55,449 nt of DNA from an uncultured delta proteobacterium. GTDB taxonomy: Bacteria > Desulfobacterota > WTBG01 > CAIYCZ01 > CAIRTM01. Positions 1,948-47,593 of this stretch are shown here, piece by piece. A program made the position numbers and the translations under genes. The number at the start of each line of letters is the position of its first letter. The first letter of the stretch is position 1. A model generated the notes under the pieces. It saw only the letters and a list, made by a program, of their open reading frames with translations, made no database searches and had not been told where the DNA came from. The stretch spans positions 1 to 55,449 of the forward strand of contig CAIWCT010000453.1 in assembly GCA_903911225.1 (NCBI GenBank), read 5' to 3'.

Positions 1948-2814
1948 ATGCTATCCTGTACAATTGTGAAGAAAATAATGCTTTTGGTTCTTGCCGGCTG
2001 TTGTATCTCTGCCGTGTGCTGCCAGTCATTCTGCCATGCTGCAGAGGGAAAAACCATTGAAGTCTTTGCCGGGGCTGCTTCAAAGCCGGCCACAGAGGAA
2101 GCGGCACAGCTTTTTGAAAAAAAGACTGGCATTCAGGTTCTTTTGCATTTCGGCGGCTCAGGGAAAATGCTTGCCGATATGAAACTGACCGGCAAGGGTG
2201 ACATCTTTTTCCCCGGCTCATCTGATTTTATGGAGCTTGCAAAAAAAGAGGGGCTTGTGCAGCCGCAAACAGAAGAGCGGCTTATTTATCTGCTTCCATC
2301 CATTAACGTGCCCAGGGGCAACCCTAAAAAAATACAAGCACTGGCGGATCTCGCCCGGCCGGGCGTGAGCATTGGCATAGGGCGGCCCGACACCGTCTGC
2401 GTGGGGCTCTATGCTGTTGAGATATTGGAGAAAAACGGTCTGGCCGCGACGGTGCGGCCCAATATCAAAACAAATGTGGAGTCTTGCGAAAAGGTAGCCC
2501 AGCTTGCAGCCCTCGGCATGGTCGATGCTGTTCTTGGCTGGAGCGTGTTTTCAAGCTGGAATCCCGATAAGATCGAGACGATAGCGCTTAAGCCCGCCGA
2601 GATACCCCGTATCGGCTATATCCCTATTGCGCTAAGCAGCGCTCCAAAAAACCCTGATGCAGCCCGGCAGTTTATAGCTTTTTTGAAGTCCGATGAGGGC
2701 CGGGCAATATTTAAAAAATGGGGCTATTTGGTGACAGAAGCTGATGCCAGAAAGTACGTACTGCCTGCAACGCCGGTCGGCGGAACCTGGGAGCTGCCGC
2801 AGTCGTGGCGCTGA
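1948..2814 (+). CDS. modA: Molybdate/tungstate ABC transporter substrate-binding protein
   Basis: Signal peptide, FAGAASKP, FGGSGKM, GDIFFPGS, VPRGNPKKI; RBS AAGGAGG. Confidence 0.88.
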   Translation: MLSCTIVKKIMLLVLAGCCISAVCCQSFCHAAEGKTIEVFAGAASKPATEEAAQLFEKKTGIQVLLHFGGSGKMLADMKLTGKGDIFFPGSSDFMELAKKEGLVQPQTEERLIYLLPSINVPRGNPKKIQALADLARPGVSIGIGRPDTVCVGLYAVEILEKNGLAATVRPNIKTNVESCEKVAQLAALGMVDAVLGWSVFSSWNPDKIETIALKPAEIPRIGYIPIALSSAPKNPDAARQFIAFLKSDEGRAIFKKWGYLVTEADARKYVLPATPVGGTWELPQSWR

Positions 2815-3599
2815 AAAATTCTTTTACCCTGTGCTTGATAGCCGCCGTTGCGGTTGCCGCAATGCTGGTGGTGGCGATTCTGGCATCCCAACTCTACTAT
2901 ATCGGACCGGCAAATCCCCTGCAGGCTCTTCTGCAGCCGGATGTGCGCAGCGCCATACTGCTGAGCCTGTATACGGCGACCGCGGCCTCGGGCCTGGGGC
3001 TTGCTCTGGCAATCCCTGCGGCCTATTTTCTTGCGCGCGCGAATTTGCCAGGCAAATCCATACTTGATGCTCTTCTTGATGTTCCGATTATCATGTCGCC
3101 GCTTGCTTTGGGCACTTCGCTGCTGCTGTTTTTTCGGACCCCGCCCGGTCAGTGGATTGAAGCAAATTTCATGGAATTTGTTTTTCAAGTGCCGGGCATC
3201 ATTCTTGCGCAGTTTTTTCTGGCCCTTGCCCTGTCAGTGCGGGTGCTCAAGGCAAGCTTTGAAGCGGTAGACATACGCTGCGAGCAGGTAGCGCGGTTTC
3301 TCGGTTGCACGCCCTGGCAGACATTTTGCCGGGTGACGCTGCCCATTGCTCGCAAAGGGATACTTGCGGCCTTCATTCTCTCCTGGGCCCGGTGCCTTGG
3401 CGATTTTGGCGCAGCGGTGACTCTGGCGGGAGCCGTTAAGGGCAAAACAGAGACCATACCCGTGAGCATTTACCTGAATATGGCCTCGGTTAATATCGAT
3501 AAGGCTGTGGCCCTGATGCTGCTCACAACACTTCTTGCCGTAGCCGTGCTGCTGGCCATTCGGGTTCTTGCAGCTGAAGGAGGCGCGGGCAGAGCATGA
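2805..3599 (+). CDS. modB: Molybdate/tungstate ABC transporter permease
   Basis: Multi-TM, LDVPIIMSP, EAA-like loop (EQVARFLG), SWARCLGDFGA; overlaps modA. Confidence 0.88.
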   Translation: MALKNSFTLCLIAAVAVAAMLVVAILASQLYYIGPANPLQALLQPDVRSAILLSLYTATAASGLGLALAIPAAYFLARANLPGKSILDALLDVPIIMSPLALGTSLLLFFRTPPGQWIEANFMEFVFQVPGIILAQFFLALALSVRVLKASFEAVDIRCEQVARFLGCTPWQTFCRVTLPIARKGILAAFILSWARCLGDFGAAVTLAGAVKGKTETIPVSIYLNMASVNIDKAVALMLLTTLLAVAVLLAIRVLAAEGGAGRA

Positions 3600-4753
3600 T
3601 CCGCATCGAAAACATGTCCGCCCGGTTTGGGACCTTCTGGCTCAGGAATATCAACCTGAACATCAAGCGCGGTGATTTTTTTCTGCTGCTGGGGCCGACA
3701 GGTGCCGGCAAGTCGCTGCTGCTGGAAACGATACTCGGTATAAAAAAGCCCGACAGGGGAAAGATACTGCTGGATGGACAGGACATCAGCAGACTGCCGC
3801 CCGAAGAGCGCGATATTGCCTATGTGCCCCAGGACCTCGGGCTTTTCCCCAATATGAGCCCGCTTGACAATATTCTTTTCGGCGCCCGGATTCGAAAAAT
3901 CGACAGCGAAACCATCCGTAGGCGGCTCGACTATCTGATCGAACATTTAAACCTGGGCCCGGTTATATCGCGCCCGAGCATTTTTACGCTCAGCGGCGGC
4001 GAAAAACAGCGTATCGCCTTTGCCCGGGCCATTATCACCAAACCCCGCGTGCTGTTTCTTGATGAACCGTTTTCAGCCCTTGATTCCTATATCAAGCGCG
4101 AGGTGCAGTTTCAGCTCAAGCGGCTGCAAAAGACTATCGACCTGACCATCTTTCATGTCACCCATGATCAGGAGGAGGCATTCCTCATGGCCGACTATAT
4201 GGCCGTCATGATCGGCGGCGCGATCGAGCAGCATGACCGGCCGGAGCAGTGCTACCGGGAGCCTGCCAATGAAACAGTGGCAAGCTTCCTGCTCATGCAA
4301 AACATTTTCGATGCCGACGTGCTGTCGGTTGATCACGAGTTGTCATGCGTTACCTGTGCGGCAAACGGCATCCGCTTTGAAATTATGAATCATAATCAGC
4401 TGCAGGTCGGAGCGAGCGTGAAGCTCGGGATCAGGCCCGAGGAGATCCTGTTTCTGACGCCGGGAAAACCGTTCAAGCCGGAAGTGCGGCACAATACCTT
4501 CCGCATGCGCGTTGAGGCGCTCTATAATCTCGGGAACAGGCGCCTCGTGCGGCTGGTGTTCGCCGATAGCGGCAGAACCCTGGATGCGACAGTCCATTAC
4601 CGTATCGGCAGAAGGTTTGAGCTGGCCGAGGGCCAGGAGACCTATATTCATCTTCGGCCACAGAGCTTCTGCCTGCTATCGGGCCATGCCCGCGGCAACG
4701 GTCAGGGAACTTCCAGCCTGGGGGGGGCAGCAGCAAATGAAAAGCTCGACTAG
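3596..4753 (+). CDS. modC: Molybdate/tungstate ABC transporter ATP-binding protein with TOBE-like C-terminus
   Basis: GPTGAGKS, LSGGEKQR, LFLDEPFS, HVTHD; ATGA overlap with the permease. Confidence 0.85.
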   Translation: MIRIENMSARFGTFWLRNINLNIKRGDFFLLLGPTGAGKSLLLETILGIKKPDRGKILLDGQDISRLPPEERDIAYVPQDLGLFPNMSPLDNILFGARIRKIDSETIRRRLDYLIEHLNLGPVISRPSIFTLSGGEKQRIAFARAIITKPRVLFLDEPFSALDSYIKREVQFQLKRLQKTIDLTIFHVTHDQEEAFLMADYMAVMIGGAIEQHDRPEQCYREPANETVASFLLMQNIFDADVLSVDHELSCVTCAANGIRFEIMNHNQLQVGASVKLGIRPEEILFLTPGKPFKPEVRHNTFRMRVEALYNLGNRRLVRLVFADSGRTLDATVHYRIGRRFELAEGQETYIHLRPQSFCLLSGHARGNGQGTSSLGGAAANEKLD

Positions 4754-5975
4754 CTATACGCAAGATCACCTGCATCGCTGGCATGTGCTGCAAATGGCAA
4801 TTGACGGTCATATTACCCTTCTTGAGGCAAGCAACCGGCTTGGCATAAGCTACCGGCAGGCCAAGCGGCTAAAAAGCGCCGTTGTCGTAAGCGGGCTTGC
4901 GGGGCTGCAGCACGGCAACCGCGGCAAGCGCTCATCGCGGGCCATAAACGATCATGAGCGCACGCGTATTCTGCATCTTGCCCGCACGCAGTATGCAGAC
5001 CTTAATGATACGCGGCTTACCGAGCGCCTGAAAAGCGAGCACGGCATCGGGCTCTCCCGCGAAACCATTAGAAGAATACTGCGCAGCGGCGGCATTAAAA
5101 GCGCCGCTGCCGGCAGCGGCGACATTCGCCTGCCCTGCTATACCAGCCAGGGGATGATGGTGCTGTGGGGCGGCATTGAAAAAAACTGGTTTGGAGATAC
5201 AAAAAGCTGCTTTATTGCCGCCGTCGATACGGCAACGCTGCGCTGTCTCGCAGCCCGCTTTTTTGACAGTCAAAGCACGCAGGGTTATCTCTGGCTCATG
5301 CGGGAAATCATGCGCACCTACGGCCTGCCCCGGGCTTTCTGCCAGCACAGCGGCAGCGCCGTGCGCCGCAGCGACAGCTCCTGGACTCTTGAGGAGGAAC
5401 TGCGCGGTGAGCGCGACCCCAGCCAGGTCGAGCGGGCGCTCCAGGCTTCGGGGATATCTCATTATCTTGAAAGCAAGCGCCGTATCATGAGCATGCCCGC
5501 CCTGTTTGAGTCCTTTCTTGCCGGACAGTTTGAGGGCCGGGAAATAACCGATAGTAAAGCGGCAAACAAACTGCTTGCGCAGGGCGTCATAGCGGCGTTC
5601 AACCGCACTCATGCCTGTCAGCCCCTCAACAGTGAGTCGGCCTGGCGGCCGGTGCCTGCGGGTGCTGATATTGAGCGCATCTGCAGTTTTTTTTATTCGG
5701 CAATCGTGCAGGCCAATAATAAAATCATGCTGGGTGAAATCACCATAGATGTGCCCCCCGGCAAGCAGCGCATTTCCTATGCGCGCACGCCGGTTGAAGT
5801 ACGGCAGCTGCTTGATGGTTCCTGGCGGGTGTATTATCAAAACAATATTATTGCGACCCACGACCCCACCCCGGTGCGGGAGCCTGTGCCGTGCCGAGGG
5901 CAGCGGCGCAGCAGCGATTCGGGCGCCATGAGCTGGATGTATGCCGTGCTGGATCACGGCAGCAGCTGTGATTAA
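4737..5975 (+). CDS. ISNCY/IS1202-like transposase derivative: intact ORF and HTH, degenerate DDE core
   Basis: LGISYRQAKRLK...GLQHGNRG, LSRETIRRIL, VDTAT, YGLPRAF, VEVRQLLDGSWRVYY match the family layout; the catalytic D/D/E positions are replaced; ATG at 4737 after a G-rich RBS, overlapping the end of modC. Confidence 0.8.
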   Translation: MKSSTSYTQDHLHRWHVLQMAIDGHITLLEASNRLGISYRQAKRLKSAVVVSGLAGLQHGNRGKRSSRAINDHERTRILHLARTQYADLNDTRLTERLKSEHGIGLSRETIRRILRSGGIKSAAAGSGDIRLPCYTSQGMMVLWGGIEKNWFGDTKSCFIAAVDTATLRCLAARFFDSQSTQGYLWLMREIMRTYGLPRAFCQHSGSAVRRSDSSWTLEEELRGERDPSQVERALQASGISHYLESKRRIMSMPALFESFLAGQFEGREITDSKAANKLLAQGVIAAFNRTHACQPLNSESAWRPVPAGADIERICSFFYSAIVQANNKIMLGEITIDVPPGKQRISYARTPVEVRQLLDGSWRVYYQNNIIATHDPTPVREPVPCRGQRRSSDSGAMSWMYAVLDHGSSCD

Positions 5976-6421: not shown

Positions 6422-7291
6422 ATGGCCAGTAGTCGAATACTGCCGGAATTCGAGCTGCTGATACCCCAGAGCATAAAGGAAGCTGTTGATTTGCTTGGCA
6501 AATTAAAGAACAAGGCTTCCGTGATGGCTGGTGGTACCGATGTAGTCATCTCGTGCACCAAGGGATTTGGCAGCCCCAATGTTATCAGTCTTGCTGAAAT
6601 CCCCGCTCTTGACTATGTCGAGTACGACAGCAAAAGTGGGCTGCGCATCGGCGCAATGGCGACCCTGCAACAGGTTGCCGATAATGCCGACGTGCAGAAA
6701 AGATATCCCGCTCTGTGGAAATCAGCAGCCATTAACGGCACACCCCAGACACGCAATATGGGCACCGTTGTTGGCAATATCATGCGCGCTTCCCCCTCAG
6801 GGGACTGCATTTGCGCGATCCTCGCGATCGGCGGCAAAGTGGTTCTTCGCGGATCCAAGGGCAAGCGGGAAGTCAGCATTGATGACTTTTACATTAAATA
6901 TCGGGAAACGGCTTGCAAAAGCGATGAGCTTGCCGTTGAAATCAAAATTCCAGCTCCTGCCGCAGGCTCCTGTAACGCCTTTGCACGCATGACCCGCACC
7001 ACCCTTGATCTTTCCAAGGTCAATGTCGCCGTGCGCCTGGACATGTCGGGCAAGACCGTGAAGGAAGCGCGTGTTGCCATCGGCGCAGTAGCGCCGACCA
7101 CCATTCGGCTGAAAAAAGTCGAGGCGCTCCTGAAAGGCAAGCAGATTACCGATGATGTTCTCCAGAAGATTGTTGAAACAGTCCCCACGGAAATTAAGCC
7201 CATTGATGATGTTCGCTCCACGGCAGAGTACCGCCGCGATGTAGCAGGCATCATGGTCAAGCGCATAATTCTTGAAGCACTGGGAAAGTAA
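6422..7291 (+). CDS. Xanthine dehydrogenase family FAD-binding (medium) subunit
   Basis: AGGTD, RIGAMATL, PQTRNMGTVVGNI, PIDDVRSTAEYR. Confidence 0.93.
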   Translation: MASSRILPEFELLIPQSIKEAVDLLGKLKNKASVMAGGTDVVISCTKGFGSPNVISLAEIPALDYVEYDSKSGLRIGAMATLQQVADNADVQKRYPALWKSAAINGTPQTRNMGTVVGNIMRASPSGDCICAILAIGGKVVLRGSKGKREVSIDDFYIKYRETACKSDELAVEIKIPAPAAGSCNAFARMTRTTLDLSKVNVAVRLDMSGKTVKEARVAIGAVAPTTIRLKKVEALLKGKQITDDVLQKIVETVPTEIKPIDDVRSTAEYRRDVAGIMVKRIILEALGK

Positions 7292-7334
7292 TTAACGGAC
7301 TATTTCACAACAAAAACTCAAGGAGATATACATC

Positions 7335-7889
7335 ATGAAAAAACGAGCAATAACTCTTACGATAAATGGGGAGGAGTATAATTTGAACGTACCCGTTCAT
7401 TATACCCTTCTTCAGGTCATGAGGGATCAGCTGAACCTGACTGACGTTAAATACGGCTGCGGCCGCGGTGAGTGCGGCGCCTGCACGGTGCTGCTGGATG
7501 TGGGAAAGGGCGGCATGCAATGCAAGCCCACCGATAAAAAAACAACCTACTGCACCATGTCGCAGAGCAAACGTAAACCCATTCTTGCCTGTATAGCTCT
7601 TGCCGCCACCATGGATGGCAAAAGCATTACGACGGTCGCAGGCCTTGCCCAAAACGGCGATCTGCACCCCGTCCAGAAGGCCTTTGTCGATGAAAGCGCC
7701 ATACAATGCGGCTTCTGCACGCCGGGCATGGTTCTCAAGGCAGTCTCAATTCTTGAGAAAAATCCCAAGCCCTCGGAAGAGGAAATCCGGAACGGTCTGG
7801 AAGGCAATATCTGCCGCTGTACCGGATATGTAAAAATTGTCAAAGCTGTTCAGGTGGCTAGTAAAAAAACAGCCACCGGCAAGCGATAG
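7335..7889 (+). CDS. Xanthine dehydrogenase family 2x[2Fe-2S] (small) subunit
   Basis: KYGCGRGECGACTVL, QCGFCTPG, GNICRCTGY. Confidence 0.95.
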   Translation: MKKRAITLTINGEEYNLNVPVHYTLLQVMRDQLNLTDVKYGCGRGECGACTVLLDVGKGGMQCKPTDKKTTYCTMSQSKRKPILACIALAATMDGKSITTVAGLAQNGDLHPVQKAFVDESAIQCGFCTPGMVLKAVSILEKNPKPSEEEIRNGLEGNICRCTGYVKIVKAVQVASKKTATGKR

Positions 7890-7904
7890 GAAAGGAGGAA
7901 CAGC

Positions 7905-10289
7905 ATGGCAGAATCCGTTATTGGAAAACGAATACCCAAAGTTGACTCCCGTGAGAAGGTAACCGGCCAGGCTATGTATGCCGGCGATTATCGCATGCCC
8001 GGCATGTATTACGGCAAAGTGGTCCGCTGCTGGGAATATGCTTCTGCAAAAGTCAAGAAACTTGATTTTACCGAAGCACTGAAGATGCCCGGTGTCGTAA
8101 AAATTCTCGGCCCCGATGATGTTACTAAAAAACCCTACAACACGACGGTTATGAAGCTGCTTGTGCCTGAAATTTTCGGCGAAGTATTCGGCGAAATTGC
8201 AGACCTTAACATCTTCAATAAAATCGTCAAGCATCAGGGCGATGCCATTTGTGGCGTTATCGCACGGACTGAAGAAGCAGCAGAGCGCGCAGCAGACAAG
8301 ATCAAGGTCACCTATGAACCCCTGCCCGTTCTCATGACCTGCGAGGAATCAAAGGCCGAAGGCGCCAAGAAGAACGGCTATCTGTTCACGCCGCTCAAGC
8401 CCGGCAACAAAGCTTTTGATCTGCCCGCATCGTTCTTCCCGAACCAGCGCTATGGCTGGAACGACAAAGACGGCAAAACGGCGATGGAGCTGTTTGATAA
8501 GTGCGATTATGTGATCGAAGATACGTATTATGTTCCCAAGCAGAAGCAGTGCCAGATGGAAAACCATTCCTATGTGGCCCATTATGATGAGCGCGGTCGT
8601 CTCAACATCTGGACTTCAACCCAGATGGCCAAGCCCGTGCAGGTGCTGATTGCAGAGCTGTTCGAGCTGCCCCTGACCCGTGTTCGCCTGGTGCAGACCA
8701 TTGTGGGCGGCGGTTTTGGCGTTCGTCTGGGCATGATCGGCGAGCCCCATTGCTGCGCCATGGCCATGGCAGTGCCCGGCCATCCTGTTCGCATGGAGTT
8801 TCTGCGCGAGGAAGACTGGGTTGCTTCCGAGACCCGTTATCCCGGCCATATCTGGTTTAAATGCGGCTTCAAGAAAGACGGCTCCCCTATCGCACTGGAT
8901 TCAATGTATATGGCCCGCAAAGGCGGCTATTATACCCATGGCTCCGGGCCGCCCTTCTGCTTTGCCGCTTTTATTCACGGTATGTATAAATGGCAGGCCA
9001 TGGGTTGCCAGACCGAAGGCTATTTCACCAATGAAGTTCCCACTGGCGCGTACCGCGGCTACGGCAACCCGCAGCTGGCCTTCTCCGGCGAGCAGATGAT
9101 TACGCGTATGTGCAAAGAGCTCGGCCTTGACGAGCTTGAGTGGCGCAAGAAGTGGCATAAGGGCATCGGCGACGAGACCTGGCTCAAAGGCGTGACCTTC
9201 GCCTCCGATGGTCTTAACGACTGCCTTGATGTTGCAGCCAAAGAGAGCGGCTGGTATGAAAAGAAAAAGAAGTATGCCAAGCAGACCGGCGTCAAACGCC
9301 GCGGTTTGGGCGTTTCCGTCATGCAGCATACCTCCGGCGCTTTCCCCATGCTGCTTGAGCATTCCGTCTGCACGGCAAAGCTGAATGAGGACTGCACGGT
9401 TGAACTGATGCAGCAGATTTCCGATCTCGGTACCGGCGGCCATACCGCTATAACGCAGATGGCGGCTGAAACCCTCGGGTTCCCGATGGAGGATATCCAT
9501 CTGCGGTCCGGCGACTCCGATATGTGCGGTTTCGACATCGGCGCTCATGCAAGCCGAACCGTTTACTGCGCAGGCCCGGCAACGATTGAAGCCTGCGAAA
9601 GCGTAAAGAAGCAGCTGCTTGAGCGTGCTGCCCAGCTTCTGGAAGCCAATGTGAAGGATCTTCAAATGAAAGACAAGATCATAAGCGTTAAAGGCAATCC
9701 CCAGAAGTCGATCAGCGCGATAAAGATCGCCAAAGAAGGCGTGTACAACTACATCGATGCGGCCACCGGAAAGACCATCGGTATTCCGGGCCAGATCCAG
9801 GGCTACTCGAGCTTCTTTGCTAAGCATTGCTCCCCGCCCTTCGGCGCCTGCATCTCCGAAGTCGAAGTGGACACCGAGACCGGCGAGATAAAAGTGCTGA
9901 AGCTCGTGAATGCTCATGATATCGGCAAAGCCATCCATCCGCCTTCGGTTGAAGGTCAGTTGGAAGGCGGCGCTCAGCAGGGTCTAGGTTTTGTGCTCAC
10001 TGAAGAGTACGCCTATGACAAAATGGGCCGCGTGCTGAACAATGATTTCACCGATTACAAGATGCTTGGCCCCTCGGATATGCCCGATGCCAAGATCATT
10101 CTGATTGAAAGCGCTCCGGATCCCATCGGTCCGATGGGTGCCAAGAGCTGTGGTGAATCAGCTCTCATGGGTCCGATTGGCTCGGTTGCCAATGCAATTT
10201 TCGATGCCATTGGTATCCAGTTTAAAGAAGCCCCCATCACGCCTGAAAAGGTGCTGAAGGCTATCAAGGAACAGGGCCTTCAGAAGTAA
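7905..10289 (+). CDS. Xanthine dehydrogenase family molybdopterin-binding (large) subunit, substrate unknown
   Basis: KVTGQAMY, VGGGFG, AYRGYGNPQ, DLGTG, HASRT, GQLEGGAQQGLG, GAKSCGE. Confidence 0.95.
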   Translation: MAESVIGKRIPKVDSREKVTGQAMYAGDYRMPGMYYGKVVRCWEYASAKVKKLDFTEALKMPGVVKILGPDDVTKKPYNTTVMKLLVPEIFGEVFGEIADLNIFNKIVKHQGDAICGVIARTEEAAERAADKIKVTYEPLPVLMTCEESKAEGAKKNGYLFTPLKPGNKAFDLPASFFPNQRYGWNDKDGKTAMELFDKCDYVIEDTYYVPKQKQCQMENHSYVAHYDERGRLNIWTSTQMAKPVQVLIAELFELPLTRVRLVQTIVGGGFGVRLGMIGEPHCCAMAMAVPGHPVRMEFLREEDWVASETRYPGHIWFKCGFKKDGSPIALDSMYMARKGGYYTHGSGPPFCFAAFIHGMYKWQAMGCQTEGYFTNEVPTGAYRGYGNPQLAFSGEQMITRMCKELGLDELEWRKKWHKGIGDETWLKGVTFASDGLNDCLDVAAKESGWYEKKKKYAKQTGVKRRGLGVSVMQHTSGAFPMLLEHSVCTAKLNEDCTVELMQQISDLGTGGHTAITQMAAETLGFPMEDIHLRSGDSDMCGFDIGAHASRTVYCAGPATIEACESVKKQLLERAAQLLEANVKDLQMKDKIISVKGNPQKSISAIKIAKEGVYNYIDAATGKTIGIPGQIQGYSSFFAKHCSPPFGACISEVEVDTETGEIKVLKLVNAHDIGKAIHPPSVEGQLEGGAQQGLGFVLTEEYAYDKMGRVLNNDFTDYKMLGPSDMPDAKIILIESAPDPIGPMGAKSCGESALMGPIGSVANAIFDAIGIQFKEAPITPEKVLKAIKEQGLQK

Positions 10290-10303: not shown

Positions 10304-10340
10304 AGAGAGCGCCCCGGCAACGGGGCGCTCTCTTTTTTTT
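10304..10340 (+). terminator. Rho-independent terminator
   Basis: AGAGAGCGCCCCG-GCAA-CGGGGCGCTCTCT followed by a T run. Confidence 0.92.
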
Positions 10341-10445: not shown

Positions 10446-10493
10446 TTGACATGAGGTGGATAGTGCCGTATAGTTTATAGCATATGCTATAAA
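10446..10493 (+). promoter_or_regulatory. Sigma70 promoter with a perfect 20-bp palindromic operator
   Basis: TTGACA-N17-TATAGT; TTTATAGCATATGCTATAAA at 10474-10493 covers the start site. Confidence 0.75.
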
Positions 10494-12798: not shown

Positions 12799-12811
12799 AA
12801 GGAGACATGCT

Positions 12812-15371: not shown

Positions 15372-15372
15372 A

Positions 15373-39870: not shown

Positions 39871-40098
39871 GGGCGGCGGACAGGGCATGCGCAGAGAACA
39901 ACCCACTGCGCTCCATGCCGCCTGCCAGCTATTTGTGTTCTTTCTCCCAAACTATATGGGGCTGCCCCGGCCACATGTGACGCGGCCCCATATAGATAAA
40001 ATTCGGATATCTGCGCCGGTTCCGGGCGCTACTGCCCGGCTGTGCCTAACAGAGCCATAACCATTTAATCTATCGAGACAAAAAAAGGAGGATCACGC

Positions 40099-41007
40099 AT
40101 GAAAACAGGACTGAAAAAGATGGCATGGGCCTTAACGCTCAATGTGTTGTGCCTTACACTGCTATGCATGAACACAGGCTGCAAGCTTGCGCTCTGGCAG
40201 GGCGATCAGCAGGTCATAGTAACATTCAACGACAATACGACAGCTACGGTTAAACTAAAAGGCATGCTCACCACCGCCTATGATAATGTAACCGCCATCA
40301 AAATTTCCGCTATCGTCAAAAAGGCCCGGCTCGCCAGCACTTCCAAGCTCGAAAATGCGTATTTCAACTTTATAAACAGCGACGGCATCAATCTGGAAGA
40401 CGGTTTGACATCGGGCAAAAGCCTGCCCACCTGGGATGATATCCAAAATGGCTATATCTATGATAACGGCACCAATGGCGGGCTGTGCATCAAATGGGCC
40501 CCCGGCACCGCGCCCGGCGATGACAACGGCACTGCCTACAGCGTGAGCCTGATGGATAACGGCACGATCGCCATCCAGGAGAACAATGTCGCTCCCCCCA
40601 CCGACCCCTGGCAGGGCGCCGAGCAGGTTCAGGTGACCTTCGGCACCAAAACGGCTACCGTCAAGCTGAGCGATATCAATATCAGCACCTATCAAGGCAT
40701 TGATGGGGTACGGTTGTCCGATATCGTTAAGAAGGCAAATCTCGCAGCTGCCGCTAATGTTAAAAATTATTATTTTAATTTTATCGCAAGCGACGGCTTT
40801 GACATGTCGAAAAAGGCGATATCAAACCAAATGAGCCTGCCCACCTGGAGCGACATGCAAAAAGGCTATCTCTATGATTCAGGCTCAAGCAGCGGGCTGA
40901 CCATAAAGTGGGAAACGGGAACGCCGCCCGGCGATTTCGGGAGATTTTACAATTGCAAGCTCATGGATGGCGGCATCATTCAAATACTGGAGGATAATGT
41001 GCTGTAA
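40099..41007 (+). CDS. Lipoprotein with two tandem repeated domains
   Basis: Lipobox-like NTGC; duplicated WQG..VTF..TATVKL / YFNFI.SDG / LPTW.D.Q.GY.YD / LMD.G.I; RBS AAGGAGG. Confidence 0.8.
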   Translation: MKTGLKKMAWALTLNVLCLTLLCMNTGCKLALWQGDQQVIVTFNDNTTATVKLKGMLTTAYDNVTAIKISAIVKKARLASTSKLENAYFNFINSDGINLEDGLTSGKSLPTWDDIQNGYIYDNGTNGGLCIKWAPGTAPGDDNGTAYSVSLMDNGTIAIQENNVAPPTDPWQGAEQVQVTFGTKTATVKLSDINISTYQGIDGVRLSDIVKKANLAAAANVKNYYFNFIASDGFDMSKKAISNQMSLPTWSDMQKGYLYDSGSSSGLTIKWETGTPPGDFGRFYNCKLMDGGIIQILEDNVL

Positions 41008-41109
41008 GAGCACGGCAGAACAGAGAAAATTCATAACAGCAGGTGTCATCGCTGCTGCGTTGAAGCCGGAGTGGCAAACTCCGGCTTCGGCATGTTTCAG
41101 GAAGACAAC

Positions 41110-41985
41110 ATGAGCATGAGTGCACGGGCGGAAAAAACCATGGCAATGCTGATGCGTGCAATAGAGTTTGACTGTGAGAGCAGCGACGGGTTGTCGGTCG
41201 AACTGAACGCACCGCTCAGACGGGCGGCTTTTCATGTCCGGCGGCAGCATGGCATGCCACGGGCGGTCGCGCTGTCGCTGTTTGTACATGCCAGTATCGG
41301 TGTGGCGCTTTTTTTTCAGCTTGTGCCGCAGCAGTTTATGCGCATGCAGGGAAGCGGAAATGAGCAAAAATTATTGGAGGTTTTTTTGATCGCCGAGCCG
41401 GCCGGGGCATCAGGCGGCGCACCACGACTGGTGCAGGCAATTGCAGCCGCACCGGCTGCTGCGCCCGAACCGGTCGTCAAAGCGGAGCACAAGCCTGAGC
41501 CAATAAAAAAAACGCTCGCAGAATACAGCATGCACCGGAAAACAAAAGCCTTACCTCCTGAGGTACCTGTGCAGGCAGAAGAAGCCCCGGTAGGTAAAGC
41601 CGATGCTACGGCAGAGAGCCCGCAGCCCGGACAAGCCACGGGGTCACAGGATTCAGGCAACCAGACGGGAGCGGGTTCCGGGAGCGGGGCTCCCTATGAC
41701 ACAAGCTTCGGCCAGGCGGATGCGCCCCGGTTTTTAAACTATGTGCAGCCCAAATATCCGCTTGCAGCACGGCAGCAGGGACGAGAAGGAACCGTTGTTC
41801 TGCGGCTCACTATTGATGAACGCGGCAATCTGGTTCAGGTTGAGGTTGTTGCAAGCCCCTCCGACGGCTTTGCCCAATCAGCTGTCGAGGCGGTCAAGCT
41901 CTCAACATTTGCTCCGGCCCTGCGGGGCGGCAAAGCGGTTTCATCACGGGCCGTGCTACCCATGCGGTTTGCGTTGCGGCATTAA
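41110..41985 (+). CDS. tonB: Energy transducer TonB
   Basis: TM with SLFVH, Pro/Ala-rich linker, PKYPLAARQQGREGTV. Confidence 0.88.
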   Translation: MSMSARAEKTMAMLMRAIEFDCESSDGLSVELNAPLRRAAFHVRRQHGMPRAVALSLFVHASIGVALFFQLVPQQFMRMQGSGNEQKLLEVFLIAEPAGASGGAPRLVQAIAAAPAAAPEPVVKAEHKPEPIKKTLAEYSMHRKTKALPPEVPVQAEEAPVGKADATAESPQPGQATGSQDSGNQTGAGSGSGAPYDTSFGQADAPRFLNYVQPKYPLAARQQGREGTVVLRLTIDERGNLVQVEVVASPSDGFAQSAVEAVKLSTFAPALRGGKAVSSRAVLPMRFALRH

Positions 41986-42017
41986 TGCCGCCCTCATCGG
42001 CGTGATACCGGGGGCCG

Positions 42018-42076
42018 GCAGGGGAAGACCTGCGTGTCTGCCCGGAACAAGGGCGCACACACAGGTGCGCCCCTAC
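42018..42076. repeat. GTAG-family REP-like doublet
   Basis: GCAGGGGAAGACCTGCGTGTCTGCCC ... GGGCGCACACACAGGTGCGCCCCTAC. Confidence 0.65.
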
Positions 42077-42135
42077 GAGATATCAATACCGGCGGACGGC
42101 TATTTTACGCAATAGGAACAAATTTAAACGGTGGA

Positions 42136-42327
42136 ATGATGGACATACAAGAGTTTAAGGGGCGGCTGAAAAAGATAGCGGCACATAAACAGTATCGAAT
42201 TTCAAGTAAAGACAGAGAGGCTGCAAAAATTGCACTTGATATTTTAAGGGAGCTGGAAAAATTGCAGCCCCTGATTACTGAGGATTTTGAAAAAACAGAA
42301 ACCATGTCCTGCACAACCGGAATATAG
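42136..42327 (+). CDS. Small hypothetical helical protein (63 aa)
   Basis: AT-rich, charged amphipathic ORF filling the gap between tonB and fmdE. Confidence 0.5.
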   Translation: MMDIQEFKGRLKKIAAHKQYRISSKDREAAKIALDILRELEKLQPLITEDFEKTETMSCTTGI

Positions 42328-42402
42328 CATGGAATTCCTGAGTGGCAATTATAGAGCGGATTTATCAATAAATTATTATTTTGTGAAGGGAGCAAGCGTC
42401 TA

Positions 42403-42945
42403 ATGAGGTCATTTGAAAAAGATATGGAAGCAGCGGCCGCCTATCACGGCCACATCTGTTCGGGAATCGTCCTGGGAGTGCGCATGGCGCGGCTGGGCTC
42501 GCAGCTTTTGGGAATTGAGGATCCTCTCAACTACCGCGACCTTGTCGTATATATCGAGGTCGACCGGTGCGCAACCGATGCCATTTATGCGGTTACGGGC
42601 TGCACCATGGGCCGCAGACGGCTGAAGTGGCTCAATTACGGCAAGCTCGCTGCAACCTTTGTCGATCTTGCAACAGACAAAGCAGTGCGGCTTGCGGTCA
42701 TTGCCGAACACTTTCCGCCCGAGGACAGCGATCTTATGAAATTCTGGGAGACAATTCCAGATGAAGAGATGTTCAAAATACAGCAGATTGTCAAAATAGT
42801 GCCGCCCGAAGACCGGCCGGGCAAGCCGCTGCGTCGGGTAACCTGTCAGGGCTGCGGCGAATGGGTGATGGACGGCAGGGATGTTACCGTCGAGGGCCGC
42901 ACATTGTGCCGCGCCTGCGCTGGCGATGCTTACGCTGTACGGTAA
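42403..42945 (+). CDS. fmdE: FmdE family protein with C-terminal zinc finger
   Basis: YHGHICSG, CATDA, TGCTMG, YGKLAATF, CQGCGE..CRAC. Confidence 0.9.
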   Translation: MRSFEKDMEAAAAYHGHICSGIVLGVRMARLGSQLLGIEDPLNYRDLVVYIEVDRCATDAIYAVTGCTMGRRRLKWLNYGKLAATFVDLATDKAVRLAVIAEHFPPEDSDLMKFWETIPDEEMFKIQQIVKIVPPEDRPGKPLRRVTCQGCGEWVMDGRDVTVEGRTLCRACAGDAYAVR

Positions 42946-42955
42946 GGAGAAAATT

Positions 42956-43726
42956 ATGTGGGAGCTGTATGACGCGCTTATCGATCTGGTGCCTGAAGAC
43001 GCGACAGTAGCCGAATGCCTTGTGGGGTACAACTGGACGCTCGTGCGCTCCCTTGCCACGGGCGTTGCGCTCACGCCGCCCAAAGAAGGTTGCAGTAAGC
43101 GCTCTATCGGCCCCATTGCGGGCATGCCCGTGCGGGCGCTTGCGAAAAAAATAAAATCCTGGAACAGCCTTGAGGCAACGCTCGGGCTTGCTGCCATAAA
43201 TTCGGTGCTGAATACGCCTGGCCAGGTCGAGCGGCTGAGCGGCATACCGCTGTCGCAGCATCACCAGATGAGCGCTTTTGCCCGGTTTAAAAACGAAGTA
43301 CGGGGCAGGCGTGTTGCGGTGATTGGCCACTTCCCCGATCTGGAGCAGATCACCAGCATGTGCGAGCTGTCAATTCTGGAGCGCAAGCCGCATGGCGGTG
43401 ATTATCCCGATCCGGCCTGTGAATACATATTGGCACAGCAGGACTATGTTTTCATGACCGCGACGACCATCATAAATAAAACCCTGCCGCGGCTGCTGGA
43501 GCTGAGCAGTCGCGCGGTGAAGGTGCTGGTGGGGCCGAGCACGCCACTGACTGCCCGGCTGCATGATTTTGGCATCGATGTGCTGGCAGGCATGGCGGTT
43601 GATGATGAGGCAGCGTTCTGGCGCACGGTGCGCGAGGCAGGCTCACTTGAAATATTTGAAAATGGAGGCCATATGGTTGAAATTAGAAATAAGCAGATAC
43701 GTACAGGTCATGATGCAGCAGCCTGA
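42956..43726 (+). CDS. DUF364 family protein (second paralog)
   Basis: MWELYD, SWNSLEATLGLAAINS, VIGHFP, NKTLPRLL, VGPSTP. Confidence 0.87.
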   Translation: MWELYDALIDLVPEDATVAECLVGYNWTLVRSLATGVALTPPKEGCSKRSIGPIAGMPVRALAKKIKSWNSLEATLGLAAINSVLNTPGQVERLSGIPLSQHHQMSAFARFKNEVRGRRVAVIGHFPDLEQITSMCELSILERKPHGGDYPDPACEYILAQQDYVFMTATTIINKTLPRLLELSSRAVKVLVGPSTPLTARLHDFGIDVLAGMAVDDEAAFWRTVREAGSLEIFENGGHMVEIRNKQIRTGHDAAA

Positions 43727-44747
43727 GCATAGCAGCCGAATGGCCCGGCCCGGATTAAGAGTCATTATCATCGGCCTCGGAGCTGCGGCGGCCTTCTTCC
43801 TGTCGCTGCCCCTGGGCAGATATCATATACCCCTGTCGGATGTCGCGGCAGCGCTTTCGGCTGCGATCTCTCCCGGTGTTGAGCTTATTCCCGATGCCGT
43901 GCAAACCGTGCTGTTCAATATACGGCTGCCGAGGATACTGACCGGCATGCTCGTGGGCGCGGTTCTGTCGGCCTCGGGAGCGGTATATCAGGGCATGTTC
44001 CGCAACCCCCTGGTATCGCCCGACATACTGGGCGCTTCAGCCGGCGCCGGCTTCGGCGCTGCATTTGCCATATGGTGCTCGTGGGGCATAGCCGGCATTC
44101 AGGTTTCAGCCTTTATTTGCGGCCTTACCGCAGTGCTTTCCGCCTGGGGCCTCTCCACGCGGATGCGCCATGAACCCATGCTGGCCCTGGTGCTTTCCGG
44201 AATTCTTATCGGCACCCTGTTCTCCGCAGGCACGGCAGCTGTGAAATATATCGCCGATCCTCTTGACAAGCTCCCCGCCATAACCTTCTGGCTCATGGGA
44301 AGCCTGGCAGCCAGCACCCGGCGCGATGCGCTTATTCTTGCGGCTGCGGCTGCGGCAGGCCTTGTGCCGCTTCTGGCCTTGCGCTGGCGCCTTAATGTGC
44401 TATCGCTGGGTGATGAAGAAGCGCAGGCCCTGGGCCTTGAAACCGGAAAGCTTCGCTTTGGCGTGATTATCTGCGCTACGCTTATGACAACGGTGTCGGT
44501 TTCGATCGGTGGCATGATCGGCTGGGTCGGGCTGATAGTGCCCCATCTGGCGCGCATGATCGTTGGGCCCAACTACGGCGTATTGCTGCCGGCCTCGGCC
44601 CTGTTGGGCGGGGCCTACCTGCTTGTTGTTGACGATCTTGCACGAATGGTCGCGGCGGTTGAAACGCCCCTGGGAATACTGACCGCCCTTATCGGCGTGC
44701 CGTTTTTTCTTTGTCTGCTGAAATACAATACGCGTGACTGGCAATGA
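43710..44747 (+). CDS. Type II (FecCD/MolB-like) ABC permease
   Basis: IRLPR, QGMFRNPLVSPDILG, KYIADP..LPAITFWLMGS, IGWVGLIVPH. Confidence 0.9.
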   Translation: MMQQPEHSSRMARPGLRVIIIGLGAAAAFFLSLPLGRYHIPLSDVAAALSAAISPGVELIPDAVQTVLFNIRLPRILTGMLVGAVLSASGAVYQGMFRNPLVSPDILGASAGAGFGAAFAIWCSWGIAGIQVSAFICGLTAVLSAWGLSTRMRHEPMLALVLSGILIGTLFSAGTAAVKYIADPLDKLPAITFWLMGSLAASTRRDALILAAAAAAGLVPLLALRWRLNVLSLGDEEAQALGLETGKLRFGVIICATLMTTVSVSIGGMIGWVGLIVPHLARMIVGPNYGVLLPASALLGGAYLLVVDDLARMVAAVETPLGILTALIGVPFFLCLLKYNTRDWQ

Positions 44748-45571
44748 AGCTCGAACTTCGGGATATCTGCTGCGGCTATGACACATCTGATGTGGTACAA
44801 GGCGTCACTCTGTCCATCGGGCCAGGGGATATTGCCTGCCTGCTCGGGCCTAACGGTTCCGGCAAGACGACGCTTTTCAAGGCCATGCTTGGCCTGATGC
44901 CGCTGCATAAGGGATCGGTTCTGCTGGACGGGCAGGACATACGGCGCTGGGACCGTCGCGATATCGCGCAAAAGCTCGGGTATATCCCCCAGCATCAAAT
45001 GCGCCCCTTTCCTTTCACCGTGTTTGACATGGTGCTCATGGGCCGCACGTCCCATATCGGGGCATGCTCATCCCCTGGCCGCAGCGACCGCATGGCGGCC
45101 ATGGAGGCCCTCGCCGCCCTTCATATGCAGCATTTGGAAAAACGGATATTCACCGAGCTTTCAGGCGGAGAGCGCCAGCTGGTGCTTATTGCCCGTGCCC
45201 TTGCCCAGCAGCCCGGCATTCTCATTATGGATGAGCCCACGGCCAGCCTTGATTTCGGCAACCAGCTTTTGGTGCTGGATCATATCCGCGAGCTTGCCCA
45301 CGGCGGTCTGTCGGTCATCATGAGCACCCACCTGCCCAATCATGCGTTTTTATTCGGCACGCGGGTGCTGCTGCTCAAGAAGGGGCATATCCTGAGCGCC
45401 GGAACGCCCGAGGAAACCGTGAACAGGGAGAATATGCGCTCTTTGTACAATGTCGATGTCGAAATCGCACAGATGCAGCTGCAGGACAGCCGTGAGATCA
45501 GGGTATGCATACCACTTTCACACTGTTCCTGCAGCCAGCGAAGAAACAAACAAAGCCAAAAGGAGAAATAA
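44744..45571 (+). CDS. Type II ABC transporter ATP-binding protein
   Basis: GPNGSGKT, LSGGERQ, MDEPTASLDFGNQ, STH. Confidence 0.92.
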   Translation: MKLELRDICCGYDTSDVVQGVTLSIGPGDIACLLGPNGSGKTTLFKAMLGLMPLHKGSVLLDGQDIRRWDRRDIAQKLGYIPQHQMRPFPFTVFDMVLMGRTSHIGACSSPGRSDRMAAMEALAALHMQHLEKRIFTELSGGERQLVLIARALAQQPGILIMDEPTASLDFGNQLLVLDHIRELAHGGLSVIMSTHLPNHAFLFGTRVLLLKKGHILSAGTPEETVNRENMRSLYNVDVEIAQMQLQDSREIRVCIPLSHCSCSQRRNKQSQKEK

Positions 45572-46653
45572 TGAGCAGAAAAAAAATTGTCCGCAGCGCA
45601 GTATCGCTTGTTCTCATGACCTGTTTTTATATGGGGGCAGCCGATCCGCTTTGTGCCGCAACCAGGCCCGGTGAGCGCACCGTGACCGATCAGGCAGGCC
45701 GCAGCGTGGTGGTGCCCGTGCAGGTCAAAAAAATTCACGGCACGTCTCCCGTGGCAACGATACTGATCTATACGCTCTGCCCCGATCTGCTCGCAGGCTG
45801 GAACAATGAGCTGCGTCCCGGTGAAAGAGAATTTATTCCGGAGCCGTACCGCAGCCTGCCGAATCTTGGCGGGTGGTTCGGCAAAACCACGGGCAGCATG
45901 GAAGAGCTGATGAAGGCGCGGCCCGATATCATCGTTTCCGCCGGCTTCCACGGTGATGCCGACAAGGAGCTTGCCGAGCGCATACAGGCGCAGGTCAATA
46001 TACCTGTTGTCATGTCCGACGGATCGCTTGACGGGTTGGAAAAAGCCTACCGGTTTTTAGGCGACCTCACGGGCCGGCAAAAGCAGGCAGCCATCCTTGC
46101 CGATTACTGCCGGGACACGCTGTCCCGCATCGATACGGCCATGAAGGGCCTTCCGGATGACCGCCATACCCGCATCTATTATGCCGAGGGCGCTGCGGGG
46201 CTTGAAACCGAGCCGGCAGGCTCCGCCCATACCGACCTGCTGTCGAGGGTGGGCGGCCGCAATGTTGCGCAGGTGCCCTCGCGCGGCGGCATCGGCATGA
46301 CGCCCGTGTCCATGGAGCAGGTGCTTGCCTGGAATCCTGACGCTCTGCTCGTGTGGAACCGCAGCCAGGGCGGGGCCTATGACACTATCATGACCGATCC
46401 GCTGTGGGCGCAACTGCAGGCGATTAAAAAACGTCGCGTCTATGAAATACCCGCCGCGCCCTTTAACTGGTTTGACCGGCCGCCGTCGGTGAACCGCCTT
46501 ATCGGGCTGGTTTGGCTTTCCCGGCTCCTTCATCCCGAGAAATTTAACTGCGACATAAAGGCTGAGGTGCAACGTTTCTGCAAACTTTTTTATCATATAG
46601 AGCTGACAGACGCGCAGGTAAAAGCGCTTCTTGAGCGCGCTGGTGGCGCCTGA
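45571..46653 (+). CDS. Class III periplasmic substrate-binding protein
   Basis: Signal peptide, VTDQAGRSV, VSMEQVLAWNPD, PFNWFDRPPSVNR. Confidence 0.9.
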   Translation: MSRKKIVRSAVSLVLMTCFYMGAADPLCAATRPGERTVTDQAGRSVVVPVQVKKIHGTSPVATILIYTLCPDLLAGWNNELRPGEREFIPEPYRSLPNLGGWFGKTTGSMEELMKARPDIIVSAGFHGDADKELAERIQAQVNIPVVMSDGSLDGLEKAYRFLGDLTGRQKQAAILADYCRDTLSRIDTAMKGLPDDRHTRIYYAEGAAGLETEPAGSAHTDLLSRVGGRNVAQVPSRGGIGMTPVSMEQVLAWNPDALLVWNRSQGGAYDTIMTDPLWAQLQAIKKRRVYEIPAAPFNWFDRPPSVNRLIGLVWLSRLLHPEKFNCDIKAEVQRFCKLFYHIELTDAQVKALLERAGGA

Positions 46654-46654
46654 G

Positions 46655-47593
46655 ATGAAAAAAATAATTCCACATCCAGCCACGCGGTCTCAGGGCGCGA
46701 GCACCGCGCTCCTACACTCTGAAGGAATTTCTCCAGGCAAGTGGTGCGACAGCAGCGTGCTTGAAAAGCTCTGGCAGGCCGAGCGGCAGCAGTCGCTGTA
46801 CGCCCGGCAGCATCCTGAGCGCTCGGGGCCCGGTTGGTGGAGCAGCCGCTCCGAAAGCTATACCCGGCGCACTGGCGGCGAGCGCGGCAAGCGGCGGCAG
46901 GAGAAAGTCATAGAACTGCTTGAACAGGCCCGCTTCATTAATCAGCGGGCCGAGGTGCTTGATATCGGCTGCGGCCCGGGCAATGTCGCCCTGCCGGTGG
47001 CGCGGCGGGTGAAAAAAGTGGTGGCCCTTGACCCGTCAGCGGACATGCTTGAAATAGTGAACAAACGCGCCGCCGCCGAAGGAATAAAGAATATCGAAAC
47101 AGTACAGATGCGCTGGGAAGACGCCGATCTTGACAAACTGGGCTGGCGTGGCCGCTTTAGGCTTGCCATTGCCTCCATGACGCCGGGCATACATGACGCT
47201 GTCACGCTGCGGAAAATGAACGAAGCTTCGAACTGCGGGTGCTATTACAGCGGATTCACCCAGCGAAGAGATGCTGCACAAGAAGACCTCTGGCGGCTTT
47301 TCTATAATGAACCCATGCCGCCCCTACCCTCTGATGTGTTTTGTGTTTTTCACCTGCTCCATGCATGGGGCTATTGCCCGTCAGTGGCATTAAGCAGGGA
47401 AAGCTCGCGGAGCCAGTATGCCATTGTCGACGCGGCACAGGAATTGGGCCTGCTGATGATTCCCTATATCGAGCAGACGGCAGAGTCTCAAGAAAAAATA
47501 GAACAGTATGTCCGCTCCGCAGTCCGCAACGGAAAATTTACTCATGAGCGCTCTTTTGTGGAAGCACGAATGCTCTGGCCGGTGAAACATTGA
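46655..47593 (+). CDS. Class I SAM-dependent methyltransferase
   Basis: VLDIGCGPG, ALDPSADML, IASMTP. Confidence 0.87.
   Translation: MKKIIPHPATRSQGASTALLHSEGISPGKWCDSSVLEKLWQAERQQSLYARQHPERSGPGWWSSRSESYTRRTGGERGKRRQEKVIELLEQARFINQRAEVLDIGCGPGNVALPVARRVKKVVALDPSADMLEIVNKRAAAEGIKNIETVQMRWEDADLDKLGWRGRFRLAIASMTPGIHDAVTLRKMNEASNCGCYYSGFTQRRDAAQEDLWRLFYNEPMPPLPSDVFCVFHLLHAWGYCPSVALSRESSRSQYAIVDAAQELGLLMIPYIEQTAESQEKIEQYVRSAVRNGKFTHERSFVEARMLWPVKH

Follow-up and report, generated by a model that had tools for sequence, protein, structure and literature searches.

A yqeB paralog inside an orange protein gene block beside a molybdenum hydroxylase operon

The orange protein (ORP) complex occurs in many anaerobes, with an Orp3/4-like gene in 248 of 401 sampled genomes of the phylum Desulfobacterota. 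On the selenium route to molybdenum hydroxylases, YqeB is the sole factor with genetic support. Why does a yqeB gene lie inside a block of ORP genes in an uncultured delta proteobacterium? The window in which we address this question is the whole contig CAIWCT010000453.1 (C453; 55,449 nucleotides, nt) of a 4.86-Mb genome in 455 contigs (G000), which is 85.5% complete with 4.96% contamination. Between positions 1948 and 47593, all 54 open reading frames (ORFs) chosen for annotation lie on the plus strand; 47 of them have a Pfam match at E <= 0.001, and two further ones are YqeB by NCBIfam.

The initial annotation had described this co-oriented array with Mo uptake, an XDH-family enzyme, ORP-type genes, yqeB, yqeC, mocA, xdhC and coxDE, and had placed one yqeB between mrp and a NifB/NifX pair. 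Our annotation agrees on this gene content, with that yqeB at 16340-17146 and the pair, both NifX-like (NFM3 and NFM4), downstream of it. The array had also been read as one integrated supercluster. The adjacency of the genes is real, yet predicted terminator and promoters and the gene order of relatives point to several transcription units rather than a single operon. The array is a composite of modules that are usually separate, and it is lineage-specific. We propose that two modules merged in this lineage and that a yqeB paralog was captured into a redox-gated ORP operon under OrpR/sigma-54 control, with coupling through expression and through a shared supply of sulfur or selenium and Fe-S clusters. 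We give this reading about even chances.

A duplicated yqeB and a split MrpORP

The window carries two yqeB cassettes on the plus strand. The first, yqeB1, spans 16297..17166 (gene 16340-17146; TIGR03309, 359 bits against a cut-off of 220), and the second, yqeB2, spans 29383..30251 (ORF 29401-30231, with the start matching that of yqeB1 at 29425; 363 bits against the same cut-off). Their proteins are 94% identical. At the nucleotide level, blastn aligns 16297-17166 with 29383-30251 at 89% over 870 nt, and the similarity is confined to this stretch, the duplicated unit being the gene plus about 43 nt on its 5' side and 20 nt on its 3' side. Nei-Gojobori counting gives dS 0.40, dN 0.031 and dN/dS 0.076, which argues that both copies have been retained by selection for some time. 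In a tree of 31 YqeB proteins the two copies are sisters, and the proteins of every other genome, those of the same genus (G001, G002, G004) among them, fall outside the pair.

The genes on either side of yqeB1 belong together elsewhere. Upstream lies an Mrp/NBP35 gene (15301-16269, plus strand, 322 amino acids; Pfam and NCBIfam), whose product covers positions 2-246 of the 365-position MrpORP model NF041136 at 369 bits (cut-off 450; ApbC 257). Downstream lies NFM3 (start 17190), one of four window genes, here NFM1 to NFM4, that match PF02579 (Nitro_FeMo-Co) over the cut-off. NFM3 aligns with MrpORP positions 259-364 at 75.9 bits. Mrp would thus be the N-terminal part and NFM3 the C-terminal part of a split MrpORP, with yqeB1 separating the two halves. 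For comparison we used 14 Mrp loci, from relatives and from another contig of the same genome. Ten of these contain Mrp as well as NFM3: eight have the pair directly adjacent, one has a PNPOx gene in between and another a 658-nt gap, and in none of the 10 does a yqeB separate the two.

Predicted control elements border and divide the block. A terminator-like hairpin of 13 pairs (10 of them G-C) followed by a T run lies at 10304..10333 on the plus strand, 15 nt past the stop codon of the Mo subunit gene. This strong predicted terminator is expected to insulate the xdh structural genes transcriptionally from the ORP block. Next comes a sigma-70-like promoter at 10446..10474 (TTGACA-17-TATAGT, 11 of 12 positions; a consensus match only), upstream of NFM1 (10556-10918). 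It is followed by a gene for a PAS-domain sigma-54 activator of OrpR type (10890-12260) and by a candidate sigma-54 promoter at 12381..12396 that matches TGGCAC-N5-TTGC exactly, 28 nt upstream of NFM2; the genes and promoters are all on the plus strand. Exact sigma-54 promoters occur at just two positions of the window, 12381 and 37105, and each lies shortly 3' of a sigma-54 activator gene, the second of OrpR type as well (35404..36966, plus strand; Pfam).

Both activators carry a three-cysteine motif in the PAS domain, C62-x8-C71-x3-C75 with D64 in the first and C103-x8-C112-x3-C116 with E105 in the second. For the [4Fe-4S] redox sensor OrpR, C52, C61 and C65 are reported together with D/E54 (PMC8359166). 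The two window activators share this Cys spacing, and in each the second position past the first Cys is acidic.

We propose that the sigma-54 promoter at 12381 drives transcription of yqeB1 along with that of the orp genes. Under this promoter, yqeB1 would be made only when the OrpR-type [4Fe-4S] PAS sensor signals low redox potential. The ORP machinery would act as a general anaerobic carrier system for metal-sulfur clusters and not as a dedicated maturase of this hydroxylase, and in a few lineages units of ORP genes, or units controlled by OrpR, would have captured additional yqeB paralogs. This is probably because the task of YqeB would be the handling of a labile reduced sulfur or selenium ligand for the Mo cofactor, for which it would need the reducing conditions of the ORP system and its helpers (NifS, NifU, Mrp, rhodanese). 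With conditions and helpers shared, the coupling would be regulatory and at the level of supply, and it would be facultative.

Sequence searches found no solved structure related to YqeB. A model of YqeB1 (pLDDT 89.3) predicts a Rossmann-like domain and a biotinyl/lipoyl-like beta domain, and its matches in the PDB are at domain level only (TM below 0.3). All of 34 homologs keep C239, and almost all keep C176 and C197. A predicted complex of YqeB1 (34-row alignment) with NFM3 (32-row alignment) scored 0.00 in both runs, for which the controls were not folded; the score weighs on binding in neither direction.

The link in relatives and across the phylum

How far the arrangement departs from that of related genomes is seen from the two modules apart. 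A yqeB over the cut-off is present in 25 of 41 clade genomes, G000 included. Its conserved setting in relatives is (modABC)-HTH-xdh FAD/2Fe-2S/Mo-(DUF134)-yqeB-coxD-coxE-nifU-xdhC-yqeC-mocA, free of ORP genes. This canonical order is found in the same-genus genomes G001, G002 and G004 and across the family, and the order XDH_Mo-DUF134-YqeB recurs in L007, L008, L017 and L160-L163. In the window, an 18.6-kb ORP block is inserted between the Mo subunit gene and DUF134-yqeB2. ORP blocks of relatives have a conserved order of their own, activator-NFM2-(DUF5320)-(DUF4405)-Mrp-NFM3-NFM4-CbiA/Fer4-(PNPOx)-CbiA/Fer4-TrmO-DUF364-...-NifU-NifS-MBL (MBL, metallo-beta-lactamase fold), and the distal half of the window block is collinear with them.

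Another genome of the genus has the modules as neighbours in a different order: in G003:C16, xdh to mocA is followed by two genes and then by DUF134-NFM1...Mrp-NFM3...CMD. The two intervening genes correspond to window positions 50285-51432 (80% nt identity), which lie past the cluster here; they mark rearrangement breakpoints. We considered whether the XDH module of G003 is decaying next to an intact ORP block and rejected this, as small indels occur in both modules (0-24 gap openings per kb). Such a spread fits an error-prone assembly, and we did not interpret the broken frames.

The window's own genome also has a second, smaller ORP-like locus (G000:C324, L041), as does G003 (G003:C5, L043). 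Both run in the order DUF134, NFM, Fer4/CCG, flavodoxin-like, Mrp (82% identical to the window Mrp), PNPOx, then DUF1847 and CMD, and both are without Orp3/4-like genes.

We then surveyed 401 genomes of the phylum. For 92 listed yqeB places, all those new to the set that had a start of at least 7000, the flanks were taken to about 10 kb in either direction. The 41 earlier regions were re-screened with the same hidden Markov models (HMMs), built from the window and its relatives. This gave 133 unique regions outside the window, with the duplicates L054=L007, L022=L008 and L065=L017 counted once, and co-localisation was judged from the fetched regions. Strong ORP-type matches stand beside yqeB in three of the 133 genomic regions (G003:C16, G368:C2 and G423:C86). 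Among metagenome contigs, one of 15 yqeB loci has the link (L158), the other 14 being canonical or too short. The initial annotation had held that a linkage unique to this genome would speak against a functional tie. These four loci show that it is not unique; it is nevertheless rare.

Each of the more distant cases is differently built. In G368:C2 (L095), a yqeB paralog lies directly behind a gene for an activator bearing the OrpR motif, followed by an exact sigma-54 promoter. This yqeB is divergent from ARMT1, an NFM::DUF5320 fusion, an ORF of no assigned family and NifU_N; DUF364 and a fusion of cation-efflux::NFM type are close by. In G423:C86 (L131), tightly packed genes on a single strand encode cytochrome c, rhodanese, an ORF, DUF134::NFM, two CbiA+Fer4 proteins, MrpORP, orf312, YqeB (343 bits), an XdhC-family protein, NifU_N and rhodanese; the MrpORP is of the fused form (521 bits, cut-off 450). 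G368 carries two yqeB copies that are mutual nearest relatives (77%), and G423 carries three, so the ORP-linked yqeB is a supernumerary paralog in these genomes, as in the window.

L158 comes from a close relative, with 85% nt identity to window positions 22073-26978 (4.9 kb). Here yqeB, as the same cassette, has a third position within the ORP block, and the genes run MBL, radical-SAM-like orf318, YqeB, orf155, CMD. In a nucleotide tree its yqeB groups with yqeB2 (support 0.98) and yqeB1 is sister to both. Site and tree together indicate that in the window's clade the cassette has changed place, or gained copies, within and near the ORP block. The ORP-linked yqeB genes are extra paralogs, and they belong to at least three independent lineages.

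Some weaker candidates were set aside. The CbiAFer4 HMM gives 334-452 bits in true ORP blocks, and matches of 27-40 bits near yqeB in L019, L020, L075, L094, L115, L129, L139 and L140 were rejected as ORP. By Pfam, the match in L075 is DHO_dh+Fer4 and that in L115 is ParA; the remaining ones were rejected on score alone. We also rejected L088 (G368:C4) as an ORP locus, as it has neither a NifX-like nor an Orp3/4-like gene. There, two Mrp/NBP35 genes, two UbiD-family genes and one UbiX-type flavoprotein gene lie directly upstream of YqeB-XdhC-CoxD-CoxE, so that Fe-S carrier genes adjoin yqeB at this locus as well.

Domain fusions occur at these loci. In L131, positions 3097-3858 encode DUF134(HTH)::NFM, and in L095, positions 13573-14172 and 3362-4636 encode NFM::DUF5320 and cation-efflux::NFM. 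Joined in this way to a regulator and a transporter, the NifX-like domain looks like a ligand-binding module, which suggests a role as sensor or carrier.

Weighing the readings

The capture reading draws on the canonical hydroxylase order of relatives, free of ORP genes, on the absence of yqeB between Mrp and NFM3 in relatives' blocks, the sister relationship of the two copies and their purifying selection. It draws as well on the terminator, the sigma-70-like promoter, the sigma-54 promoters and the OrpR-type Cys motifs, and on the parallels in G368:C2, G423:C86 and L158. Several points weigh against it. Co-transcription of yqeB1 with the orp genes is deduced from spacing and promoter scans only. 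At least three independent recruitments of yqeB to ORP loci, one of them operonic with XdhC, could point to a direct biochemical hand-over. The association has outlasted rearrangements in the window's clade (window, L158, G003), which suggests selection for linkage. Moreover, the pattern used found no sigma-54 promoter in the 12.3-kb G423 contig, so OrpR-type control would not be common to all cases.

The juxtaposition may instead be neutral, produced by rearrangements and a redundant duplicate in a region rich in metal-cofactor genes and carrying no functional or regulatory meaning. Gene order does vary among the window, G003 and L158, and counts of proximity leave room for chance. By a rough estimate from the window's own genome, which has ORP-type genes at three loci and about 1.7% of its length no more than 10 kb from one of them, roughly one of 92 random loci would have an ORP-type gene at that distance. 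Two of the 92 yqeB places do, so proximity as such is not clearly enriched. More distinctive are the tight packing of the genes as operons, the position of the promoters and the recurrent recruitment of additional paralogs. Strong purifying selection on both window copies over a dS of 0.40 speaks against neutrality, as do the tight operonic packing in G423, the candidate sigma-54 promoter dedicated to yqeB in G368 and the persistence of the association in the window's clade. We therefore regard a neutral origin as unlikely.

One might also suppose that the ORP machinery and YqeB cooperate on a molybdenum-chalcogenide step, in which a Mo-S(Se) or Fe-S(Se) species is carried by NifX-like proteins and MrpORP and is handed to the Mo cofactor, or received from it, by a dedicated YqeB paralog working with XdhC. 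We are doubtful of this proposal. If true, the ORP complex would supply the sulfur or selenium ligand to Mo hydroxylases in at least some anaerobes, and the mark it left on genomes would be the repeated independent capture of extra yqeB paralogs by ORP loci.

In the proposal of the initial annotation, the ORP complex would be a direct scaffold. NifX-like proteins, MrpORP and Orp3/4 would assemble or carry a species of thio- or seleno-molybdate type, and YqeB and XdhC would use it for maturation of the XDH-family enzyme. The place of yqeB1 between the halves of MrpORP favours the idea, and so does the G423:C86 operon, in which MrpORP is united with YqeB-XdhC-NifU between flanking rhodaneses. 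It also gains from the recurrence in at least three lineages and from the orange protein itself, reported as a binder of a Mo-Cu-S cluster (PMC6345978). Set against this, the link is found in only 3 of 133 genomic and 1 of 15 metagenome loci, proximity in the phylum sample is 2 of 92 against about one by chance, and the predicted terminator insulates the structural genes.

Profiling of orp against yqeB, which the initial annotation had put forward as a check, does not strengthen the case. In the 401 genomes, yqeB is over the cut-off in 129, and in the co-occurrence table it stands at 131: both yqeB and an Orp3/4-like gene occur in 91, yqeB only in 40, an Orp3/4-like gene only in 157 and neither in 113. 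The co-occurrence is weak (odds ratio 1.64, Fisher p 0.03, uncorrected for relatedness). The 157 genomes with Orp3/4-like genes only and the 40 with yqeB only argue that ORP is not a dedicated maturase of YqeB-dependent enzymes and that YqeB does not need ORP.

Copper fares no better at the enzyme. The Mo subunit lacks the Cys of carbon monoxide dehydrogenase (CODH), having GAYRGYG opposite the Cys-bearing loop of 8uem_A and 1ffu_B; we take this Cys to be the Cu ligand. The window does have NosL and CoxD/E-like genes, but at the enzyme the copper part of the initial annotation's title is thus unsupported. On these grounds a direct scaffold seems to us rather improbable.

The reverse direction deserves the same scrutiny. 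ORP-linked YqeB paralogs may have left hydroxylase maturation to serve the ORP system itself, bringing selenium or sulfur to the cluster that NifX-like proteins bind. Every case outside the window comes from a genome or sample with another yqeB context (two copies in G368, three in G423, and L158 shares its sample with the canonical L160), and L158 and G368:C2 show no XDH genes in the fetched flanks, which span 6-10 kb only. The two window proteins, 94% identical with a dN of 0.03, give no sign of neofunctionalisation in yqeB1. XdhC, a Mo-cofactor chaperone, lies 3' of the ORP-linked yqeB in G423, which also argues against a departure from maturation. We find this explanation improbable as well.

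An assembly artefact, that is, a chimeric contig joined through the yqeB repeat in a metagenome-assembled genome of 455 contigs, is very improbable: for all the completeness and contamination values given above, the two yqeB copies are distinct (89% nt) with unique flanks for each, Logan contigs from runs X1, X3 and X4 span the XDH_Mo-to-NFM1 and YqeB1-to-NFM3 joints, and L158 independently has yqeB in the same type of block. At least half of the window's words are found in eight runs, and the 10 listed runs, from freshwater and lake metagenomes, belong to five studies, one run possibly being the source sample; none of those listed is recorded as RNA. The Mrp-to-YqeB1 joint does not appear among the 32 of 188 Logan pieces listed, and an exact search of metagenome contigs with 30 nt across the Mrp/yqeB1 joint gave no match. 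In run X1, loose ends at 16275 and 17197 mark a yqeB1-like segment with other, AT-rich flanks, for which we found no place in the window's genome or in any fetched locus. The X1 contig and L158 together suggest several locations for the yqeB cassette within the population.

These comparisons show that any link between ORP and yqeB is facultative, and they caution against over-reading a single striking locus. The few natural fusions and operons in which MrpORP, NifX-like proteins and OrpR-type control come together with a yqeB paralog provide concrete protein and promoter pairs that can be tested. In the library searched, no paper pairs 'orange protein' with 'yqeB'. Among the matches listed, judged by titles and abstract openings, none linked ORP with Mo-hydroxylase maturation, and in the text of PMC2276186 the terms 'NifX' and 'iron-sulfur' do not occur.

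The modules of the array and known systems

All genes described below are on the plus strand, assigned by Pfam unless another source is given. The hydroxylase module begins with an oxyanion ABC transporter of ModA/ModB/ModC type at 1948..4753 (SBP_bac_11, BPD_transp_1, ABC_tran). Its ModA exceeds the cut-off of TIGR01256 (77.7 bits against 62.5), and its ATPase is closest to the WtpC model at 292 bits, under the cut-off of 440. The XDH-family enzyme (6422..10289) has a FAD subunit (6422-7291), a 2Fe-2S subunit (7335-7889) and a Mo subunit (7905-10289). Its best NCBIfam model is XdhA, at 578 bits where 780 is needed, and all 13 NCBIfam matches to named XDH equivalogs (XdhA, 4-hydroxybenzoyl-CoA reductase alpha, PucD, Se-dependent XDH) remain under their cut-offs. 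Among solved chains, 4-hydroxybenzoyl-CoA reductase alpha (1rm6_A, 305 bits) comes nearest to the Mo subunit.

Beyond the ORP block the hydroxylase module resumes with a small HTH-type DUF134 protein (28877..29323), which precedes yqeB2 as in the nearest relatives. The maturation genes (30170..35291) follow: a CoxD-like AAA+ gene (AAA_5, start 30170), a VWA_CoxE gene (31147), a NifU_N-like gene, xdhC (32922), yqeC (33707; TIGR03172, 203.5 bits, cut-off 73.05) and mocA (34716; TIGR03310, 189.2 bits, cut-off 186.45). The module thus runs modABC, HTH, xdh FAD/2Fe-2S/Mo, (DUF134), yqeB, coxD-like, coxE-like, nifU-like, xdhC, yqeC, mocA.

The HTH protein between transporter and enzyme genes (4815..5975; HTH_32/28/29) resembles an ISNCY transposase, at 170.7 bits under a model cut-off of 250. 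In 12 of the 133 yqeB regions, L021, L023, L025, L029, L032, L034, L035 and L055 among them, a homolog with 36-71% identity occupies this position, after modC and ahead of the xdh genes. The protein has the look of a regulator derived from a domesticated transposase, not of an insertion sequence.

In the ORP block, the proximal half (12409..16269) encodes NFM2 (12409), DUF5320, orf76, DUF4405, Fer4+CCG, a flavodoxin-like protein and Mrp. NFM3 and NFM4 (17609), both Nitro_FeMo-Co proteins, are followed by two Orp3/Orp4-like genes of the CbiA/ParA+Fer4 type with two [4Fe-4S] sites each (18007-18870 and 19499-20365) and a PNPOx-like gene between them. The distal half (20534..28759) comprises TrmO_N, DUF364/DUF4213, Fer4, HAD-like, radical SAM, NifU_N, NifS, a metallo-beta-lactamase fold, NosL, DUF1847 and CMD.

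The second exact sigma-54 promoter (37105..37120, plus strand) lies 183 nt upstream of orf173, which opens an uptake module (37288..47593). This module continues with a TonB-dependent receptor, orf302, TonB_C, orf97, FmdE+zf-DksA, DUF364/DUF4213, a FecCD permease, an ABC ATPase, a periplasmic binding protein and a methyltransferase. The receptor is closest to the siderophore-receptor subfamily (175 bits, under the cut-off of 223.5). The 16-nt promoter at 37105, TGGCACATGGCTTGCT, is identical to that ahead of yqeB in G368:C2 (L095, position 10570, minus strand). Homologs of the receptor (50-51%) and of orf302 (41-42%) adjoin modA and the xdh operon in L018 (G034:C13) and L064 (G022:C9), from another family, which hints by analogy that the pair may be part of the metal supply for the Mo enzyme. 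The orf302 gene (40099-41007) has no Pfam match and a signal-peptide-like start; it is internally duplicated, with 102-nt direct repeats at 40420 and 40834 (75% alike), and its protein consists of two similar halves. Beyond the cluster, at 48630-50145, lies a toxin-antitoxin-like pair, in which a PemK/MazF-like gene comes after one with HTH_3 and Peptidase_M78 domains.

A selenium-type system is plausible for the clade. We found no selD over the cut-off in the window's genome, whose assembly is 85.5% complete (best match 82 bits against 125). Of 40 relatives, however, 36 carry a selD that reads through one in-frame TGA, all four congeners among them; the TGA suggests that SelD is itself a selenoprotein in these relatives. 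In five of them selD lies 1.5-16 kb from yqeB (G030:C8, G036:C4, G005:C61, G011:C40, G034:C13).

How does the array compare with known systems? YqeB, YqeC and YgfJ (MocA) are said to form an accessory set of selenium-dependent molybdenum hydroxylases, as Haft and Self reportedly described in 2008. The window has all three families, each over its cut-off (TIGR03309, TIGR03172, TIGR03310) near the XDH-family enzyme. It differs by its second yqeB, sited in the ORP operon, and has CoxD/CoxE-like and NifU-like genes between yqeB and xdhC. Genetics in C. difficile from 2024 lend support to YqeB and none to YqeC (PMC11448449).

With the CoxD/CoxE/CoxF system of the aerobic Mo-Cu CODH, the window has in common the AAA_5 and VWA_CoxE genes next to an XdhC-family gene; from the form I Mo-Cu enzyme its Mo subunit differs in lacking the Cys loop. 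The window enzyme is like the three-subunit 4-hydroxybenzoyl-CoA reductase (1rm6) in having FAD, 2Fe-2S and Mo subunits, and differs from it in the Mo subunit, which reaches 442 bits against an NCBIfam cut-off of 994.

The ORP system of D. vulgaris Hildenborough consists of Orp3, Orp4, Orp5, Orp8, MrpORP (Orp9) and the activator OrpR. The OrpR regulon is reported to be limited to the two orp operons (PMC8359166), MrpORP of Desulfovibrio is a single fused gene, and the role of the complex is given as 'putatively involved in cell division' (PMC6345978). The window shares with this system two CbiA proteins with two [4Fe-4S] sites (Orp3/Orp4) and single-domain Nitro_FeMo-Co proteins of Orp8 type, any of which might bind a Mo-Cu-S cluster. 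It also shares an MrpORP-type Mrp/NBP35, though split, and a PAS-AAA+-HTH sigma-54 activator with three Cys together with a sigma-54 promoter. The differences lie in the arrangement. D. vulgaris has two divergent operons around the activator, whereas the window genes are all on the plus strand, and the fused two-domain MrpORP is absent from the window, where Mrp and NFM3 are parted by yqeB1. The window block is far larger, with NifU/NifS, radical SAM, TrmO_N, DUF364, NosL and others, and, unlike that of D. vulgaris, it is embedded in a Mo-hydroxylase operon.

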